Assembly (NCBI GenBank): GCA_016292635.1
Contig: JAEDIC010000001.1
Span: 67,275-131,274, forward strand
From: Clostridia bacterium
GTDB lineage: Bacteria > Bacillota > Clostridia > Christensenellales > CAG-138
Length of the DNA: 64,000 nucleotides
Direction of reading: 5' to 3'
Of this stretch, positions 41,885-55,200 are shown piece after piece. How positions within the stretch are numbered: the stretch's first letter is position 1; each line of letters starts with the position of its first letter. The translations under genes were made by a program, and so were the position numbers. The notes below the pieces were generated by a model, which worked only from the letters and a program-made list of their open reading frames with translations, was not told the origin of the DNA and did no database searches.

Positions 41885-42892
41885 ATGTCTAATTCCGCTC
41901 CCATCAAGGATAAAGAAGAAAAGAAAATACTGCCCTTTCGCATACTGCAGATACTCAAAGAACACTCGGATGAAAATCACCCCTTGACCTCTTCACAGAT
42001 AATCTCCCGGTTGGATCGCGACTATGGACTCAAGGCCACCCGCAATACCATCCGCAGCAACCTTCATGTGCTCATGGATGCAGGTTATGAAATCAGCACC
42101 TTTGAGGACAACGGCAAAGGCATATATATTGAGGAGGGTGAGCTGCTCCACGAGCAGCTCCGCTGGCTGATTGACAGCGTGCTGAACTGCCGTTATCTTC
42201 CGGAAAACAGGGCGCAGGAACTTATCACCACCCTCAAAAAAATGGGTGGACCTGGCTTCTGCAGCAGCATGGATTACGCCGATGCGTTAAAGCAATGGCC
42301 CCGCCACACTAATCAGGAGTTTTCTTTAAGCCTTGAACTGTTGGAAGAAGCCATTGAAGAAGGCCGCCGTGTCACCTTTAACTACAATCGCATGGACTGC
42401 GACGGCGAGCTCCATCAGTTAGGAAACACCCACCTTGTGCTGCCCATCTGCATATTCCCGGTGAATTATCAGTATTACATGGTAGGATATGACTTTGGAG
42501 CAAATATGCTGCTCCACTACCGTCTGGACAGAATAACCGGGACGAATGTTGCAGAAACGGCCATAGACGATGACAAAAAGCTGAAGCCCCGGGATTTCAA
42601 CGCCGTCCAGTATGCCCGCCAGCACCCTCATATGTACGGCGGAGTGCCCGAACCCATCACCATGAAGATGCCCCGCCGCCTTGCCGGCGCCGTAATGGAC
42701 ACCTTTGGCCCCGCCGCACTCATGCGCCCGCTGGATGAGGAATACATGCAGGTGCGTGTAACAGCAGCGCCTGAGGGCATGCGCTTTTTCGCTCTGCAAT
42801 ACGGTCCAAGCTGCGAGGTGCTGAGCCCCCAAAGCTTGCGTGATATAATTAAACAGGATATAATGGGAATGGTAGAAAAATATTCTGATTAA
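41885..42892 (+). CDS. WYL-domain transcriptional regulator (HTH-WYL-WCX architecture).
   Basis: N-terminal wHTH (FRILQILKEHSDENHPLTSSQI). WYL core VTFNYNR..YYMVGYDFGANMLLHYRLDRITG. Confidence 0.85.
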   Translation: MSNSAPIKDKEEKKILPFRILQILKEHSDENHPLTSSQIISRLDRDYGLKATRNTIRSNLHVLMDAGYEISTFEDNGKGIYIEEGELLHEQLRWLIDSVLNCRYLPENRAQELITTLKKMGGPGFCSSMDYADALKQWPRHTNQEFSLSLELLEEAIEEGRRVTFNYNRMDCDGELHQLGNTHLVLPICIFPVNYQYYMVGYDFGANMLLHYRLDRITGTNVAETAIDDDKKLKPRDFNAVQYARQHPHMYGGVPEPITMKMPRRLAGAVMDTFGPAALMRPLDEEYMQVRVTAAPEGMRFFALQYGPSCEVLSPQSLRDIIKQDIMGMVEKYSD

Positions 42893-48124: not shown

Positions 48125-48307
48125 ATATTGAAACTAAACGAAATAGATTACATACTTACCTAAATATATTGGCGCAGAACAGCTGCCCTCCCTGCCAAAC
48201 ATCATGCCCGATATTCGCCCTATACACCCTTGATGTAAAATGATATACTAAAATTATATATGTAAAGATAAAATTCTATCGAAAATAAAAGCATTTTGGG
48301 GTCTCAT

Positions 48308-51300
48308 ATGCGAGTAAATATTCTGGATTTTGCTGAAAACTATGCCATAAAGCAAATATTTGAGCTTTGTAAATTTAAGCCTGCAACGAATCCCAAGGAT
48401 GATTTGGCAATATCACAATTGGCAGATTATATTGAAAGCCTCAGCCCCTATGTCGAACGTGATGCGGCTCAGATTTCGCTGCTTCAAAGTATCATGATTT
48501 CCATGGACGATAATGGCATGGCAGACTCATACAGAGTAAAGGCATTGCATTCAGCCGTTATGCATTGGGGCATGGGCTCCGCTGCGGATAAAATCACATC
48601 TACTCAGGAATACTCAGCGCTCTATGAAAAGGGATTTATCTATGAAGTGCTGCGTCTCGGGAAGCAGCGATGCCTTAAATTCCAGCATCCGTATTCGGAT
48701 GCTCTCAAGAGCGGCGCGTTGGCAGGTATTAAAGAACTGCTTGCAAAAAATGATATTGTAAAATCAAACAACAAAAATGTATCTGAAGGCATATCAAAAT
48801 CTCATCTTTACAATAAAACCGAGCCTACAGAAAACTCTGCCATGCAGATGCTTTTCAGGAGAATCAACCGCGAATTTCCCGATGCTGCTTACATTGGCGA
48901 TATAAAAATCAACGATGAAGAATACGCCATTCTGAAGCAGTATTTGAAAAAAGCATTGGAAAATCTTGATGGCAATCCTGACGATGCCATGTATGCTGTG
49001 GCTGTGGTACAGGTTGCCATGCGTACATATCGTGAACATGTTTTTTGGGGAAATTTCTTTGCCGAAGCAGATGTTCCGTCAAATGCCTCCCTGCAGGGAA
49101 TTATAGGCAAAAAGTTCTGGGCTATTCTCATAAAGCATAACAAGTTTCATACAGACAGCAAACGCTATATACAGAACATTCTGATGCATTGCTATGTTTC
49201 TGATTATTACGCACCCAAGTATTTTGACTTTTTATACAAGTTTTACAGCATAGACCTGGACAGAGATATATCGAGGCTTGATCAGGAAACGATGAACATC
49301 CTGCTTGACTCGGTATGCTCTGAAGATAATACCGGGCGCCGATATATGCTGGTACAGCATACAAGCCAGGCAGTAGCAGCAAACAGACCCGATGCAGCAG
49401 TTCGTATACGTCGCCACCTTGAGCAAATCGATAAGCTGTTCTGGAACCCGGAATATGAAATCATAGCGGACCACCGGCTGGATTCCCTTATGCAAGATTG
49501 GGCAAGGTCAGCCAACGAGCTGGCGCTGGATGCAAACAGCATTGGAAGAAATCACGGGCGCGGTGCACGAAGGTTCTCTTCCCCTTATATTTTCTTCGAC
49601 AAAGCAAATGCTTCTTTCCAGCTGGTATTGCCGTCCCAGATAGTAAAATGGGGTGGAGAAAGCGACCTGTACTGGGAGATTTCCGGCGCAGAGGAAATCT
49701 GTCTGGAAACTGAACTCACAGAGTCGGTAACGGGCTACAAAGTACTGCAGACAAGCACTCCCATAAATTGGCATTCTGTGCTTGGCAAATTCAGGATCAG
49801 ATTGACTGATAACGGCGGAATCGCTCACAAGACTTTTTACATAACAGAAAGCAACATCAGATTTTTCGATTGCGATGGATATCCCGTAAATGCCAATGCG
49901 CTTAAGACAGAGGAAATCATTGCAGTATCTCAACCCGAAGACATATTGCTGTCCAGCGCTCTTACTGACAGTTATGTGGCGAATGGGCTGCTATTCTCCT
50001 GCTTTGATTTTGAATATGAGGACATATTGCGTCTGCCTGACGGCAAAGCGGTAATAGTGGGTAAAAAAGAAATTCAAAGCGGCCTTGCCGGCAAAGGCTA
50101 TGTGGAAGCGGCTGTATGCACCTATGATGACAACGAGTGCAGGCTATATCGGGAAATGCCCCATCTGGTTCTCAGAATGCAGCCTCAAAAGGCCGCAGGA
50201 ACATGCATAGAAATAAATGGGCAGCGGTTTAAGCTGTTTGATACCGAAACCGTAGAGTTTTCCATAGATGACCGTTCAGGAGAGACAGGATATTACATAA
50301 ATCTGGCATTCTTAGGTGCTCAGAATGGATTATACGAAATAATGGCCGATATCCCCGGGGGTGCTGTACATCGCTGGAAATTTGTGCTGGTCAAAGATTT
50401 TGAGGCTGTATTCGACGGTGCTCCATATGTATTTGAGCCCCGTGGAACAGTAAGCTTTAATGACAGCATGCAGGTAATACCGCTCAGTGCCGCAGCAGAA
50501 CAAGTGCCGGGAACCAATGATTTCAAGTTTGAAATAGAGCGCACCGGCCGCCGGATAGAGTTTGAACTTGCTGCATTGGATAAGCCATGCATTGTGTCGC
50601 TTCCGGTGCCTGCTGTGTTTATAAAGGCAGGGAATGACAATTGGTCAAGCCGCCGTCCGCCCCATATGTGGCACAAAGATTTCCCGGATATTATTGAACT
50701 GTCCGTACCCTATCACAAGGTTTCGCTCAGTATGGAACATCCATCTTCAGATGATGGCGGAAGAAGAATTGAATACGGAAGAAACATGGGCAGCGACAGC
50801 ATTGTTTGCGATGTTCGTCGTTTCAAGTCGTACTTATCCGGCGACGGAAACTTAAGGCAGCTGCGTATGAGCTTTGCAGAAGTAGATACCGATTTGTTTA
50901 ATATACTGATCAGAAGTATAGTTACTTCCTGTGATATAATAGGCAACTTCGAAAATGATTCTATCACTATAAACGCAAATATTATCGGCCAGGCACAGTA
51001 TTGCTTTGATCTGTATCATAACGGAGCGTTGATAGCGGATAAGGCAATGCTTGATAATGGAACTGCAACACTATTCGGCCTGGCAAAGAATGGACGATAT
51101 ACAGTAGAATTATTTGAAGAGGAAGCAGATACCTCCGGCTTTGAAGACGCTTATTATTCCTCCCTCGGCAAATATGAACAGCAGCTGCTCAATCCTTATG
51201 ATATGAGCGACAGGTCCTTCCGCATCATCCAGATAGAGAATAAAGAAAATGGCACTATATATCCGTTGATGTGCAACTTCTACGTGGAGCACCTGAAAAA

Positions 51301-52258
51301 GGTTGATGCAAATATCTATTGTGGAACCATGGTTGCAGAAAAGCGTGATGGAACAATACTTGCCGCATTTCCTATAAATGTTGAGTTTCCGGATCTTAAG
51401 ACTCCCGGCCTTCTTTGGATAAGCTTTGCTGATGAGTATGGTGACAAGACAGAATTCCTTTATGACACCAGAAGAAAAGTAATTCTTAAAGAGGAAAATC
51501 CTGCGCTGCGAAAGCTTGAATGCTATCGCAGATACAGTGTTCTTAATCAAAGTGAAGAAATCTTCCGCGTTGAATTCTGTGATAGAGCAAAGTGCGCAAG
51601 AGAAGATATCCCCAATACTTTGGTGTTTGAGGAAACATCGAATGTATTCAGTTTTGCCAATCAAAGACAATCCCGCGCCTTGCAAGAAAAAAACAACAGA
51701 AGCATTAAGGATATAAGCTGGAAGGGGTTAGACTATGAATTTCTGAAGGCTGCAGGAATTCATAGAATGGGGCAAATAGTCTGTCACGACAGAAATTCAT
51801 TCAAAAGGCTGATTGGAGCAGCGGAAGAAAGCATCGACAGAATTGAACGCACCTTGGCTGCATATGGTTATTCTTTTGCAAAAGCCGAAGCATCTATTGG
51901 CAGCGCAAAAGCATATGCAACATCCTTTGCTTCGAAAGAACCGATTGAGAAAGCTTCTGTCATTTTACCGGCACCTGATGCCTGGGACGAAGTACAAGTT
52001 CTGGAACCATGCAACGATGAGTACAGTACTTCAACTGAAGAAGCAGCTCCAAAAGACACGAGAGATATTAAGGTATCCCATACCATGCTACCGCCCATGA
52101 CATACAACTGCCTTAAAACTGCGGGGCATCTAACTGTTGGCGATGTGCTGGAGCTGTACCTGGTTAAAGGCAAAAAAGGTCTTGAGAATATCCCGCGAAG
52201 TACGGCAGAGATGAGACAGCAGATCATGGATATGCTCAAACACTACGAATTGATATAG
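48308..52258 (+). CDS. Giant orphan protein (about 1316 aa) with two C-terminal RpoA-alphaCTD-like HhH modules. DruH-like by position only.
   Basis: Uninterrupted ORF. ATG 48308 is preferred over TTG 48296. I find no Walker or catalytic motif. C-terminal LDYEFLKAAGIHRMGQIV and TYNCLKTAGHLTVGDVLEL..GLENIPRSTAEMRQQI resemble SYNCLKRAGINTVQEL..NLGRKSLEEV. Confidence 0.7.
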   Translation: MRVNILDFAENYAIKQIFELCKFKPATNPKDDLAISQLADYIESLSPYVERDAAQISLLQSIMISMDDNGMADSYRVKALHSAVMHWGMGSAADKITSTQEYSALYEKGFIYEVLRLGKQRCLKFQHPYSDALKSGALAGIKELLAKNDIVKSNNKNVSEGISKSHLYNKTEPTENSAMQMLFRRINREFPDAAYIGDIKINDEEYAILKQYLKKALENLDGNPDDAMYAVAVVQVAMRTYREHVFWGNFFAEADVPSNASLQGIIGKKFWAILIKHNKFHTDSKRYIQNILMHCYVSDYYAPKYFDFLYKFYSIDLDRDISRLDQETMNILLDSVCSEDNTGRRYMLVQHTSQAVAANRPDAAVRIRRHLEQIDKLFWNPEYEIIADHRLDSLMQDWARSANELALDANSIGRNHGRGARRFSSPYIFFDKANASFQLVLPSQIVKWGGESDLYWEISGAEEICLETELTESVTGYKVLQTSTPINWHSVLGKFRIRLTDNGGIAHKTFYITESNIRFFDCDGYPVNANALKTEEIIAVSQPEDILLSSALTDSYVANGLLFSCFDFEYEDILRLPDGKAVIVGKKEIQSGLAGKGYVEAAVCTYDDNECRLYREMPHLVLRMQPQKAAGTCIEINGQRFKLFDTETVEFSIDDRSGETGYYINLAFLGAQNGLYEIMADIPGGAVHRWKFVLVKDFEAVFDGAPYVFEPRGTVSFNDSMQVIPLSAAAEQVPGTNDFKFEIERTGRRIEFELAALDKPCIVSLPVPAVFIKAGNDNWSSRRPPHMWHKDFPDIIELSVPYHKVSLSMEHPSSDDGGRRIEYGRNMGSDSIVCDVRRFKSYLSGDGNLRQLRMSFAEVDTDLFNILIRSIVTSCDIIGNFENDSITINANIIGQAQYCFDLYHNGALIADKAMLDNGTATLFGLAKNGRYTVELFEEEADTSGFEDAYYSSLGKYEQQLLNPYDMSDRSFRIIQIENKENGTIYPLMCNFYVEHLKKVDANIYCGTMVAEKRDGTILAAFPINVEFPDLKTPGLLWISFADEYGDKTEFLYDTRRKVILKEENPALRKLECYRRYSVLNQSEEIFRVEFCDRAKCAREDIPNTLVFEETSNVFSFANQRQSRALQEKNNRSIKDISWKGLDYEFLKAAGIHRMGQIVCHDRNSFKRLIGAAEESIDRIERTLAAYGYSFAKAEASIGSAKAYATSFASKEPIEKASVILPAPDAWDEVQVLEPCNDEYSTSTEEAAPKDTRDIKVSHTMLPPMTYNCLKTAGHLTVGDVLELYLVKGKKGLENIPRSTAEMRQQIMDMLKHYELI

Positions 52259-52268
52259 GAGACATACA

Positions 52269-55200
52269 ATGGCATTTTTCCCGGTAGCGGCCTCCGCAGA
52301 AATCACAAAGAAATATAAGCAGTATCTCAAAACTATATTTGAGCTGAAGGATCCGGTGTATCAGAAGCAATTCCAGAAGCTTCTGGATGATGATTCTCAG
52401 TTTGCCAACGGGCCCTATCTCGATGTAACAGACTCCTTCAAAAAGGGTAGTTCCATCAACGAGCTGATAGAAAGCGGGATCCTTCCCAAGGGCTTTGAAA
52501 AGCTGAACATGAACCTTACCAGGCCATTGTATCTGCATCAGGAAAAGGCGGTATCCAAGGCTGTTTCCGGAAAAAACATGGTTGTTTCCACGGGTACAGG
52601 CTCCGGTAAAACAGAGAGCTTTCTTATTCCCGTGCTGGCACATATAGTATCCGAGCTGCAGACAGGCAAAAAAGAATCCGGAGTAAGGGCATTGCTTATT
52701 TACCCTATGAACGCCCTTGCCAACGACCAGATCGAACGTCTGCGCTCCTTGCTCAAAGATTATCCCGAAATAACATACGGCAGCTATACAGGACAAACCC
52801 GAAAAACTTATAGAGAGGCGCTGGCTGAATATCGAATGCTCAACAACGGCAGCGAGCCAAATCCCAACGAGCTTATAAGCCGCGAGCAGATGCAGGACGA
52901 CCCTCCCCATATTCTTGTCACAAACTATGCCATGCTGGAGTACCTTATGGTACGTCCAGATGACAGCGTTTTCTTCCAGAACGGAAGCAGCTGGAAATAT
53001 GTTGTACTGGATGAAGCCCACGTGTATTCCGGCTCCACCGGAATAGAGGTATCAATGCTGCTCAGGCGGCTGAAGAGCACCCTTAAAGGCAGCAATCTCC
53101 AGTACATCCTTACCAGCGCCACCTTGGGCGATGAAAACAGTAATAAGGAAGTAGCTGAGTTTGCATCCGCCTTGTGTGCAGCCCCCTTTTCTGCCGCGGA
53201 TGTGATCAGGGCATACCGGGTAGAAACGGTGGTACAGAATACAAAAACAAACCTGCCTGCCGAGTTTTACAGGGCCTGCGGCGATGAACTGGCAAAAGAT
53301 ATTCCGGACGAAAAGCATATTGCTGCCTTGCTGCAGCAGTATACAGGGATGAACTGCAGCACCGGAGAACTGAGCGAGTGGCTTTATGATGCGCTGGAAT
53401 GTGACGGAACATTTCAGAAAATAAAGCGCTTTATGAATGTTCCCCGAAAGGTTAAGGAGATATCCCGCCATGCAGGCTGGAGCGATTCTGATACCGAGCG
53501 GTTTATAATAACAGCATCCCATGCGGCAAAGGGCGGAATACAGCTTTTTGACGCCCGCTATCATATGTTTCTCAGAGCCACAGAGAGCGTATTTGTAACA
53601 CTCGGCTCCAACAAACGGCTGTTTTTAGACCGTAAAGAATATCATTACGAAGCAGACGGCAGGCAACAAAAGGTGTTCGAGATAGGAACCTGCAGCTTTT
53701 GCCATGCAATATTTATCACAGGCGAAATCCAAAACGATATTCTGATGCAGACGGGTAAAGCCAACAGCGACGATGGCTCTGCAGTGTTTTTGCTTGAAAA
53801 TGAATTCGCGGATACAGACGAAGATCACCTCATGGAATATGACGGGCTGGATTTGGAACCCTACGAGGTATGCCCCCAATGCGGATTTATACGTCGGGCA
53901 GATGCGGTAAAGAAAAAGAGCTGTGCCTGCGGGCAGCCCATGATAAAGCTGTGGAAAGCAAATAAGCTCTCCAAATCCTTAAAAAAGTGCCCTTCCTGCG
54001 AAGCGGTTAGTCCTTTGGGCATATTGCGCATGTTCTTTACCGGGCAGGAGGCTGTTACCAGCGTTATAGGTACAGCGCTGTTTGAATCGCTGCCTGCATA
54101 TAAAATAACCATACAGCAAACGGTGGAAGAAGATGACTCCGGTTTCGGCTTCAGCGATCAGTCCGTAGAAAGCAATGAAAAAGAAGCCAAGCAGTTTCTG
54201 GCTTTTTCAGATAGCCGTCAGGCCGCTGCGTTTTATGCCACTTACATGGATAAAACATACAGAAATATGCTCAATAAGAGGCTTATAGTGGAGACGCTGA
54301 GCGGACTTCGCGCACCGATGCCCATGGAGCAGTTTGTAGGTGATCTTGCCGGCGAGTTTGATGCGCATAAAAGTTGCGACAACGGCAGCTATGCCGAAAA
54401 AGAAGCCTGGAAAGCCATACTTGCTGAACTTATAGACAACAACGGCAACACATCCCTGTATAGGACGGGATTGCTTCAGCTGAACTTGAAAAAGCAAACC
54501 TTCCCCGGAAACGGGCTGTGGAAGCTGTCCCCGGAGGAAGTGCGTGCGATATGCTGCGAAATTTTGCTGCCGATGGTGGCAGATGCAGCTGTTTCCCACA
54601 GCCAGGTGGCCCTTACAAAAGCAGATCTGGAAGATATAACCCACAGCGGAGTGAAGAGCGCATATACCTATTCCGATGCGGATTCACGCAAGCGGCAAAA
54701 GGCCTTTATACCTACCAGATCCGGACTCAGCAATAAGCGAATAGACTATATTTCAAAGCTGGCCCGTAAGGTTGGGCAGCCTGACGATCAGCAGAATTGC
54801 ATAAAACTGCTGAACGGAATATGGAAAATACTGACCAAGCCGGAAGATTCTATCCTTTCACAGGAAAACGGCGCTTATACAGTTGATGTGGGTGCATTTA
54901 CCGTATTCGGAAAAGGACAGTGGTATCGCTGTCCAAAATGCAAAAAACTGACTGCATATAACGTAAAGGGCATATGCCCCACTTATCATTGCGACGGTGA
55001 ATTGGAGCCGGTTGATCCGGAAACGCTGTTTGCAGGCAACCACTATTTTGAAATGTACCGCACCATGGATATGCGCCCCCTCAGAATAGTGGAGCATTCT
55101 GCCCAGCTTTCCAAAGAGAAGGCATATGAGTACCAGCGCAGATTCAAGGAAAAGGAGCTAGACGTGCTGAGCTGCTCCACCACCTTTGAAATGGGTGTTG

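Follow-up and report, generated by a model that had tools for sequence, protein, structure and literature searches.

At the C-terminus of a giant protein encoded directly upstream of a DruE-type helicase we have found two genuine, diverged copies of the C-terminal domain of the RNA polymerase alpha subunit (alphaCTD), a double helix-hairpin-helix (HhH). By analogy with Druantia, the pair formed by the giant and DruE may be a variant, so far little known, of an established defence system, equipped with alphaCTD-like accessory arms. The gene of the giant lies on the forward strand at positions 48308..52258 of the window, the whole stretch of 64,000 nucleotides of a Clostridia bacterium contig analysed here. 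It codes for 1316 amino acids from the ATG at 48308, or for 1320 from an in-frame TTG at 48296, from which all residue numbers of the giant are counted. A copy in the public collections (P0003) starts at the ATG at 48308, has 1316 amino acids and is identical to the giant of the window.

The first module, M1 (residues 1132-1196, 51689..51883, forward strand), is a degenerate alphaCTD-like double HhH and the second, M2 (residues 1254-1320, 52055..52255, forward strand), is also alphaCTD-like. Between them runs an acidic, disordered linker (residues 1197-1253, 51884..52054, same strand) with pLDDT below 50 and a pI of 4.1. M1 and M2 contain the segments 51704-51877 and 52067-52255 (residues 1137-1194 and 1258-1320), which an earlier note had described as following the alphaCTD pattern, and this assignment was borne out by profiles and predicted structure alike. 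The CTD part of the NCBIfam rpoA models (positions 238-317 of 320) aligned to residues 1118-1197 with an E-value of 1.8e-5. PF03118, the Pfam model of the RpoA CTD, matched residues 1249-1286 (model positions 3-42) at 19.1 bits, and at 20.1 bits when M2 was scanned alone, so that the Pfam gathering score of 23.8 bits was not reached by M2; M1 scanned alone gave no Pfam match. HMMs of each module, built from the alignment columns of the giant's own family, matched one another and also the CTD of the genome's own RpoA, at 46.5 bits for M1 (RpoA residues 248-309) and 26.1 bits for M2 (247-303). Identity of the modules to this CTD is about 20%, and the real rpoA of the genome is located elsewhere, apart from the giant.

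AlphaFold2 (AF2) predicts M1 and M2 as four-helix units (pLDDT of about 85-89) with the disordered linker between them, the helices spanning residues 1146-1189 in M1 (pLDDT about 85) and 1267-1316 in M2 (about 87). The resemblance to RpoA CTD structures anticipated for this region was recovered by Foldseek, the first 50 matches in the PDB being all RNA polymerase (RNAP) alphaCTD with a probability of 0.95-1.00, mostly 1.00. Isolated CTD chains superposed on one or other of the two modules with TMt of 0.65-0.86 and rmsd of 1.2-2.1 Å over about 60 columns. By sequence, phmmer with the C-terminal 199 amino acids retrieved weak alphaCTD matches from the PDB (E 0.18-1.4), suggestive and not significant alone.

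The contact set that alphaCTD uses on UP elements, known as the '265 determinant', consists (in E. coli numbering) of R265, N268, C269, G296, K298 and S299. Aligned to the genome's RpoA CTD, M1 has L, E, F, A, E and S at these positions, so that one of the six contact residues is kept and three acidic ones have been gained. M2 keeps two of the six, with M, N and C at the equivalents of R265, N268 and C269, the remainder being non-conserved in either possible register. Because the minor-groove arginine and most of the other DNA-contact equivalents are lost, canonical docking on UP elements appears unlikely for the copy in the window, and its affinity for DNA may be weak or absent.

In spite of this loss, the modules have not drifted freely. 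Between the giant of the window (P0001) and its relative P0004 both M1 and M2 are 100% identical, with changes in the linker and the beta array. M2 also shares 66% identity with P0005, against 51% for the whole protein. Nowhere in the C-terminal tail is conservation lower than in the linker, which is 89% identical to that of P0004, 20% to that of P0005 and 14% to that of P0009. These comparisons indicate that M1 and M2 are under constraint and better conserved than the linker between them. The first hairpin of M2 (M-T-Y-N-C-L-K) is conserved, and hairpins of this type, [ML]-T-x-N-C-L-K, are kept across clades with only 24-38% overall identity, while M1-type modules keep aromatic surface positions (the W in 'DI[ST]W', and 'YG[YVM]xF'). 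Furthermore, both modules are basic (pI 9.5 for M1 and 8.1 for M2), in contrast to the acidic core (4.8) and linker (4.1).

This conservation bears on the idea that M1 and M2 bind no ligand of their own, being either leftovers of evolution or a cap with a purely structural role. Their optional presence in the family, the scores of the window's copy below the Pfam threshold (with M1 alone giving no match at all) and the decay of the DNA-contact residues would all fit such an origin. However, the invariance of both modules in P0004 while linker and beta array changed, the above-average conservation of M2 in P0005, the hairpin retained across distant clades and the prediction of well-folded units make it very improbable. 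The same combination of lost DNA contacts and persisting conservation could instead indicate protein-protein adaptors that dock the giant on DruE or on a neighbouring leucine-rich repeat protein, and so fill the part played in canonical DruH by its C-terminal helical domain, and the conserved aromatic positions of the M1-type modules would fit a packing interface. AlphaCTD is, besides, a classic protein-contact module. In Pseudomonas aeruginosa the C-terminal helical domain of DruH binds DruE (10.64898/2026.05.13.724313), so that an extra helical part at the C-terminus might just as well be a contact for DruE.

The genes found next to the giant are relevant to this point. Only 10 nt past its stop codon starts the gene of a compact DruE-type helicase of the YprA/MrfA family (52269..56930, forward strand, 1553 aa), which matches the PADLOC models DruE1 (9.2e-174) and DruE3 (4.4e-154) and has the Pfam domains DEAD, Helicase_C and MZB (DUF1998; residues 1443-1526). 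Pfam detected no PLD or other nuclease family in it, and the protein ends 27 residues past MZB. In all nine other distinct loci examined, from genomes of Desulfitobacterium, Caloramator, Bacteroidales, Eubacterium and Ruminococcaceae and from metagenomes, a full-length DruE orthologue was present on the same strand directly downstream of the giant. Across these loci the giants share 27-45% identity and the DruE proteins 47-58%, indicating that the giant evolves faster. DruE is followed in the window by a gene coding for a BspA-type LRR_5 protein of 665 aa (56956..58953, forward strand; Pfam LRR_5, 1.4e-81). Such a gene comes after DruE in locus L020 as well; L019 and L004 have one in the vicinity, in P0007 and P0011 LRR_5 forms part of the giant itself by fusion, and L003, L006 and L007 have none. 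With an association that is partly conserved, the LRR_5 protein is a possible third component in this clade. The vWA (DUF2201) and MoxR genes located further downstream were considered as parts of the system and discarded, since other loci do not keep them beside the pair. The best score of DruE being on a type I model, the giant was also considered as a fused set of DruA to DruD, and this was rejected: it has no PADLOC match to DruA-D and has one continuous core.

Described at first as an orphan, the giant is in fact a family member: searched with a trimmed core profile (A4; the best 150 matches were listed), its family comprised at least 843 clusters at 50% identity. It is also the fixed upstream partner of the DruE helicase. 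Among 127 representatives of this family, alphaCTD-like modules were present in 39 and 91 consisted of the core only. Of the 127, 32 extend at the C-terminus by a tail of 60 aa or more, which in 30 of them carried alphaCTD-like modules. These modules are therefore optional accessory parts of the family. Given that they are missing in 91 of 127 representatives while DruE accompanies the giant in each of the loci examined, they are not a general interface for DruE. In long relatives such as P0008, P0014 and P0020, moreover, up to five modules of this type are located at the opposite, N-terminal, end, together with Sigma70_r4. Both observations speak against the protein-protein adaptors mentioned above, and we regard that explanation as unlikely, although less so than the others set against the one we prefer. 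The long relatives have in common with the giant of the window the conserved core, the DruE partner and the type of accessory module. They differ in that their modules are canonical (R-x-x-N-C-L, G-M-G-x-G-S), whereas the giant of the window has just two degenerate copies at the C-terminus and no sigma region 4. Motifs of the R-x-x-N-C-L and G-x-G-S types are kept by the N-terminal modules of the long relatives and also by M1 of a distant clade.

Parts derived from RNAP are overrepresented among the accessory domains of the family. PF03118 matched 22 of 33 homologues at or above the gathering threshold (best E 6.6e-52), alphaCTD was found in eight of 30 long relatives, Sigma70_r4 in nine of the 33 homologues, and there was one HARE-HTH, a fold that also occurs in the delta subunit of RNAP. 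Phage takeover proteins often target alphaCTD as well as sigma region 4. This counts in favour of M1 and M2 (and sigma region 4 in the relatives) being integrated decoys of host RNAP surfaces, in which a takeover protein that binds or modifies the bait would trigger DruE. R265 is, however, the residue modified by the known phage ADP-ribosyltransferases, and its equivalent is absent from both modules of the window. With only about one residue in five shared with the genome's own RpoA CTD, they would be poor mimics, and each of alphaCTD, sigma region 4 and HARE-HTH is, quite simply, also a widespread type of DNA-binding module. Even considering the proposal that DruH is a protein-recognising sensor (10.64898/2026.05.12.724681), we find such decoys quite improbable, if somewhat less so than leftovers. 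Apart from alphaCTD, the accessory domains of the family are for the most part of types that bind DNA (Sigma70_r4, HARE-HTH, HTH_28 and HHH_5), and some relatives have protein-binding LRR repeats at equivalent positions. The distribution of the giant is patchy and island-like: it was present in one of the 201 species genomes of its own order, and tblastn gave no match in the plasmid and phage collections.

For the remainder of the giant, in which no motif could be named at first, a recognisable layout resembling that of DruH was predicted. The N-terminal region (residues 1-179, 48296..48832, forward strand) is hypervariable, with 53% identity to P0004 against 95-100% elsewhere in the giant (89% in the linker), and partly of low confidence, with pLDDT between 32 and 60 in its first 60 residues and under 50 from residue 155 to 177. 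It is followed by a conserved alpha-helical domain (residues 180-420, 48833..49555, same strand; AF2 pLDDT mostly 80-94) that carries family-invariant residues, including D202, E209, Y210, Y245, W251 and H298. Then comes an all-beta array (residues 430-1095, 49583..51580, same strand), predicted by AF2 as about six Ig/FN3-like beta-sandwich domains, a number that derives from the grouping of strands and not from inspection in 3D. The mean pLDDT of the helical part (here counted as residues 1-417) and the array together is 79.5. The conserved core of the family comprises about 930 aa. Foldseek searches with the model of residues 1-1105 against the PDB and BFVD retrieved generic multi-Ig/FN3 ectodomain arrays; a baseplate-J-like match, of the type reported for DruH, was found in neither database (the PDB set has no DruH entry). 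Scanned whole, the giant gave no PADLOC match and only the sub-threshold PF03118 match in Pfam, and with PADLOC, Pfam and NCBIfam taken together there was no defence family, only weak alphaCTD signals.

The reading that we prefer, and to which we would give an even chance, is that M1 and M2 serve the sensor subunit of a system similar to Druantia type III-B as flexible arms that dock on DNA, likely with low specificity. We infer the defence function of the giant-DruE pair from analogy with Druantia, and the DNA-docking role of the modules from the properties given below. The giant would be the subunit in the position of DruH in a two-gene anti-phage system, with the compact DruE helicase without nuclease domain as its partner. 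Its conserved core, the helical domain plus the approximately six Ig-like domains, would be the part that works with DruE. M1 and M2, strung on disordered acidic linkers much like the tethering of alphaCTD in RpoA, would be accessory and outside the essential machinery of the family. As low-specificity arms they would most likely touch DNA, keeping the sensor subunit near the DNA substrates unwound by DruE, and would probably not read UP elements. We lean to a contact with DNA because the other accessory domains of the family are mostly of DNA-binding types, because the modules of some relatives keep their contact motifs, because M1 and M2 are basic whereas the remainder of the protein is acidic, and because DruH itself binds ssDNA (10.64898/2026.05.12.722862).

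If so, the modules would be a pointer to how a sensor subunit reaches its substrate. If their ligands are phage proteins instead, they would represent a novel type of bait, and decoys in particular would parallel, in bacteria, the integrated-decoy domains found in the NLR immune receptors of plants. Either way, a large family of DruE partners, whose members have gained RNAP-derived modules repeatedly, goes unrecognised by the current defence-finding profiles (PADLOC, Pfam) and would carry the annotation of Druantia over to gut and anaerobic Firmicutes and Bacteroidota. For experiments, the family supplies natural variants with and without the modules. We found no papers on this family of giant partners in the literature, nor, in searches for alphaCTD-like domains of defence proteins and in the Druantia/YprA preprints checked, any description of these modules.

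Compared with the CTD of RpoA (PF03118), the modules share the fold, a double helix-hairpin-helix of some 60 residues tethered by a flexible linker, and M2 keeps the motif of the first hairpin, Y-N-C-L-K-x-A-G. They differ in lying outside RpoA and below the Pfam gathering score, in the loss of the R265 equivalent from both and in not keeping the equivalents of G296 and K298. A similar HhH module might be carried by another defence protein, as suggested by the PADLOC profiles of PglW (Pgl / BREX type 2), positions of about 780-880 of 1403 of which match the canonical modules of the relatives with E-values down to 2.8e-12. PglW, however, contains a kinase and belongs to a different system, the match involves a single small module, and the giant of the window has no PglW match.

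DruH is built of an N-terminal helical domain, six Ig-like domains plus a C-terminal helical domain (10.64898/2026.05.13.724313; 10.64898/2026.05.12.722862). The giant has a DruH-like predicted layout, and homology of its core to DruH was not demonstrable by sequence. The giant and four relatives matched none of the PADLOC DruH HMMs (more than ten models; STY4851/ECs_5259) at E-values up to 10, in a test validated with the DruH of E. coli ATCC 8739 (P0036), which matched ten DruH3 models. Neither PF27205 nor PF27201, recorded on DruH homologues, was matched by the giant. With hhalign the probability against the giant family was 0.3% for P0036, not significant, and 4.2% for a profile of 15 DruH sequences (A5; E 0.0098, 73 columns), also insignificant. 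The A5 alignment pairs invariant positions (E, Y, L and W) with each other, which we take only as a hint. Contrary to DruH, the conserved core of the giant ends after the beta array, without a large C-terminal helical domain, and what its family appends instead is a changing set of modules derived from RNAP (alphaCTD, sigma region 4), together with LRR repeats.

Druantia type III (Doron et al. 2018), as a system, resembles the pair of the window in several respects. In both, a two-gene operon has a partner of about 1000-1300 aa directly upstream of a helicase of the DruE/YprA family (DEAD, Helicase_C, MZB), the partner evolves faster than the helicase, and the distribution is island-like and patchy. 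The model of the giant, with helices towards the N-terminus and then about six Ig-like domains, would agree with the corresponding part of DruH. The DruE of type III-A has C-terminal PLD-like nuclease domains. A compact 'III-B' branch of type III, in which DruE is devoid of them, has been described (10.1101/2025.09.15.676423; 10.64898/2026.05.13.724758), and the DruE of the window, without such domains, fits this III-B-like branch.

The giant partner protein of the DruE helicase is encoded on the forward strand at 48296-52258, as 1320 codons open from a TTG, and its residues are numbered here from 48296. An identical protein of 1316 residues (P0003), starting at the ATG at 48308, is present in the public collection. 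Two segments at its C-terminus had been read in the earlier note as resembling the C-terminal domain of the RNA polymerase alpha subunit (alphaCTD), a double helix-hairpin-helix (HhH). They correspond to residues 1137-1194 and 1258-1320, letter for letter as quoted, and lie within the modules delimited here as M1 (residues 1132-1196) and M2 (residues 1254-1320). NCBIfam models, family HMMs compared with RpoA, and AF2 models searched with Foldseek confirm that this likeness is real and no chance pattern match. Residues 1118-1197 matched the CTD part (positions 238-317 of 320) of the NCBIfam rpoA models (E 1.8e-5). Residues 1249-1286 scored 19.1 bits against Pfam RNA_pol_A_CTD (PF03118), and M2 scanned alone 20.1 bits, both below the Pfam cut-off of 23.8 bits; M1 alone had no match in Pfam, and no Pfam family besides PF03118 was found on the giant. 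PF03118 was found in 22 of 33 homologues of the giant (24-90% identity; best E 6.6e-52), and one homologue, P0026, carries the automatic NCBI name 'RNA polymerase subunit alpha C-terminal domain-containing protein'. HMMs made from the family's own columns for M1 and M2 match one another and also detect the CTD (residues 247-309) of the real RpoA of this genome, encoded on a different contig, at 46.5 and 26.1 bits respectively. The AF2 model of residues 1100-1320, built from a 25-row alignment, contains two four-helix units (pLDDT ~85-89) separated by a stretch with pLDDT <50. In the comparison with RpoA CTD structures that the earlier note had proposed, the top 50 Foldseek matches in the PDB were all RNA polymerase alphaCTDs, with probabilities of 0.95-1.00 (mostly 1.00); isolated CTD chains gave target-normalised TM-scores of 0.65-0.86 and rmsd of 1.2-2.1 A over ~60 columns.

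In E. coli, UP-element DNA is contacted by the '265 determinant', made up of R265, N268, C269, G296, K298 and S299. In an alignment of all 63 modules with the RpoA CTD of this genome, M1 has L, E, F, A, E and S at these positions. M2 retains only the N268 and C269 equivalents, with Met at R265 and a second hairpin that is non-conserved in either plausible register. By profile and predicted structure, both modules are thus members of the alphaCTD fold that miss the Pfam threshold as well as the DNA-contact signature. Long relatives keep the R-x-x-N-C-L motif and the G-x-G/K-S hairpin in their N-terminal modules, as does a distant clade (P0026-P0028) in M1. Nevertheless, the window's copies are, as judged from sequence comparison, not decaying. 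With the relative P0004 (90% identity overall) M1 and M2 are both 100% identical, against 89% in the linker (residues 1197-1253) and 95% in the beta array of the core; with P0005 (51% overall) the values are 66% for M2, 40% for M1 and 20% for the linker. The M2-type hairpin [ML]-T-x-N-C-L-K recurs across clades of just 24-38% overall identity. This pattern contradicts the idea that the modules are vestigial or purely structural, which we consider very improbable. Both are mildly basic (pI 9.5 for M1, 8.1 for M2), whereas the core (4.8) and the linker (4.1) are acidic. At the other end of the protein, residues 1-179 (48296-48832) are hypervariable, with 53% identity to P0004 versus 95-100% elsewhere (linker 89%), suggesting a specificity region that has been swapped or evolves fast; AF2 models the first 60 residues with low confidence.

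The giant had been called an orphan, a description that did not survive a search with its core profile (residues 180-1098): clustered at 50% identity, the matches number at least 843 at E up to 1e-3 and 351 at E up to 1e-30. Of the 127 representatives, 91 were classed as core-only and alphaCTD-like modules are present in 39, C-terminal in 30 and N-terminal in 7, with some matches in neither terminal class. Since most representatives are core-only and the modules occur at either terminus, they are optional accessories shuffled to either end of a constant core. C-terminal tails of 60 residues or more occur in 32 proteins, 30 of which have such a module there. Long relatives have up to five canonical copies in N-terminal extensions (in P0008, five stretches within the first 800 residues give 165.8 bits), and these arrays are often accompanied by Sigma70 region 4. 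The co-occurrence of alphaCTD and sigma region 4 makes it attractive to see the modules as integrated decoys of RNA polymerase surfaces, baiting phage takeover proteins, but the window's copies, lacking the R265 equivalent, are poor mimics and we regard this as improbable. LRR_5, HARE-HTH, HTH_28 and zinc ribbons occur sporadically as further additions. PADLOC PglW profiles (positions ~780-880 of 1403) match canonical modules of P0006, P0008 and P0026 (e.g. L004:8001-14108) with E down to 2.8e-12, suggesting from sequence that PglW (Pgl / BREX type 2) likewise holds an alphaCTD-like HhH module. RNA polymerase-derived or HhH modules were not found in the Druantia/YprA preprints searched by term, nor by broader literature searches.

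Ten nucleotides downstream of the giant lies DruE (52269-56930, 1553 residues), assigned by PADLOC (DruE1 9.2e-174, DruE3 4.4e-154) and by Pfam (DEAD, Helicase_C and MZB, the MrfA zinc-binding domain). It terminates 27 residues past MZB and is therefore without a nuclease domain. A full-length DruE orthologue is directly downstream on the same strand in 9/9 other distinct loci examined, from Desulfitobacterium, Caloramator, Bacteroidales, Eubacterium and Ruminococcaceae genomes and metagenome contigs (identity 47-58% for DruE, 27-45% for the giant). In L006 the pair stands alone amid housekeeping genes, so the two genes form a unit. The giant is present in 1 of 201 species genomes of its own order, a patchy presence that fits a mobile defence island. 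In L019 (4261-9512), a locus with a 51%-identical relative, a large serine recombinase, a TnpW-like gene, a small Sigma70_r4 protein and a NikA-like gene precede the pair, suggesting an integrative mobile element bearing the system.

A BspA-type LRR_5 protein (56956-58953) follows DruE, as in the closest relative (L020:12782-14908); an LRR_5 gene lies within ~2-3 kb in two more loci (L019:21119-23524, L004:21122-22108), and P0007 and P0011 have LRR_5 repeats fused at the giant's N-terminus. It may be a third component in the window's clade, and the gene is absent in the distant loci L003, L006 and L007. Same-strand DUF2201 (metallopeptidase-like and vWA-like) and MoxR-type AAA genes (58968-61931), ahead of a strong terminator (61957-61982), adjoin the pair in no other locus examined and are therefore probably a separate module. 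A WYL-domain regulator gene upstream of the system, adjoining in L004 (6888-7889) and ~5 kb off in the window (41885-42892), may be a regulator that recurs in these islands.

Docking of the modules onto DruE or the LRR protein seems unlikely to us, given that most family members lack them and are yet paired with DruE. The reading we favour, at roughly even odds for the statement as a whole, is that M1 and M2 are docking arms of low specificity on flexible tethers, with DNA as the most likely target. The reasons are that DNA-binding folds predominate in the family's accessory repertoire, that relatives with canonical modules retain the DNA-contact residues, that M1 and M2 are basic islands on acidic tethers, and that the system would act on DNA. 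Against DNA docking stands the loss of most of these residues in the window's own modules.

By analogy with published DruH-DruE work, the pair would provide a direct, DNA-centred defence in which DruE, loaded on 3' ssDNA or a DNA fork, would unwind its substrate, and the giant would serve as sensor and DNA-binding regulator. DruH is reported to bind ssDNA at its Ig5/CTD interface, with ATP competing (10.64898/2026.05.12.722862). With a mean pLDDT of 79.5, AF2 predicts residues 1-1105 to be helical up to ~417 and all-beta at 430-1095, with about six beta-sandwich domains counted from strand grouping, and Foldseek retrieved multi-Ig/FN3 arrays from the PDB and BFVD. The predicted N-terminal helical domain and Ig-like array thus appear to correspond to those of DruH, whose large C-terminal helical domain has no counterpart, the family core stopping right after the beta array. 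Our DruH reference from E. coli ATCC 8739 (P0036, 'STY4851/ECs_5259 family protein') is recognised by ten PADLOC DruH models, and Pfam PF27205 and PF27201 occur on its homologues; neither the giant nor any of four relatives matched the PADLOC models at E up to 10. When a 15-sequence DruH alignment was compared with the giant family, profile against profile, the probability was 4% (E 0.0098, 73 columns), and sequence homology is not demonstrable. Invariant E-Y-x-x-L and W positions of both families coincide in this short alignment, a lead and not a result. The system contains a member of the DruE family, with a partner that tested outside the DruH sequence family. A compact 'type III-like / III-B' Druantia branch has a DruE of the same description, without a nuclease (10.1101/2025.09.15.676423; 10.64898/2026.05.13.724758), and the window's system is organised like Druantia type III-B and, by analogy, would also work like it.
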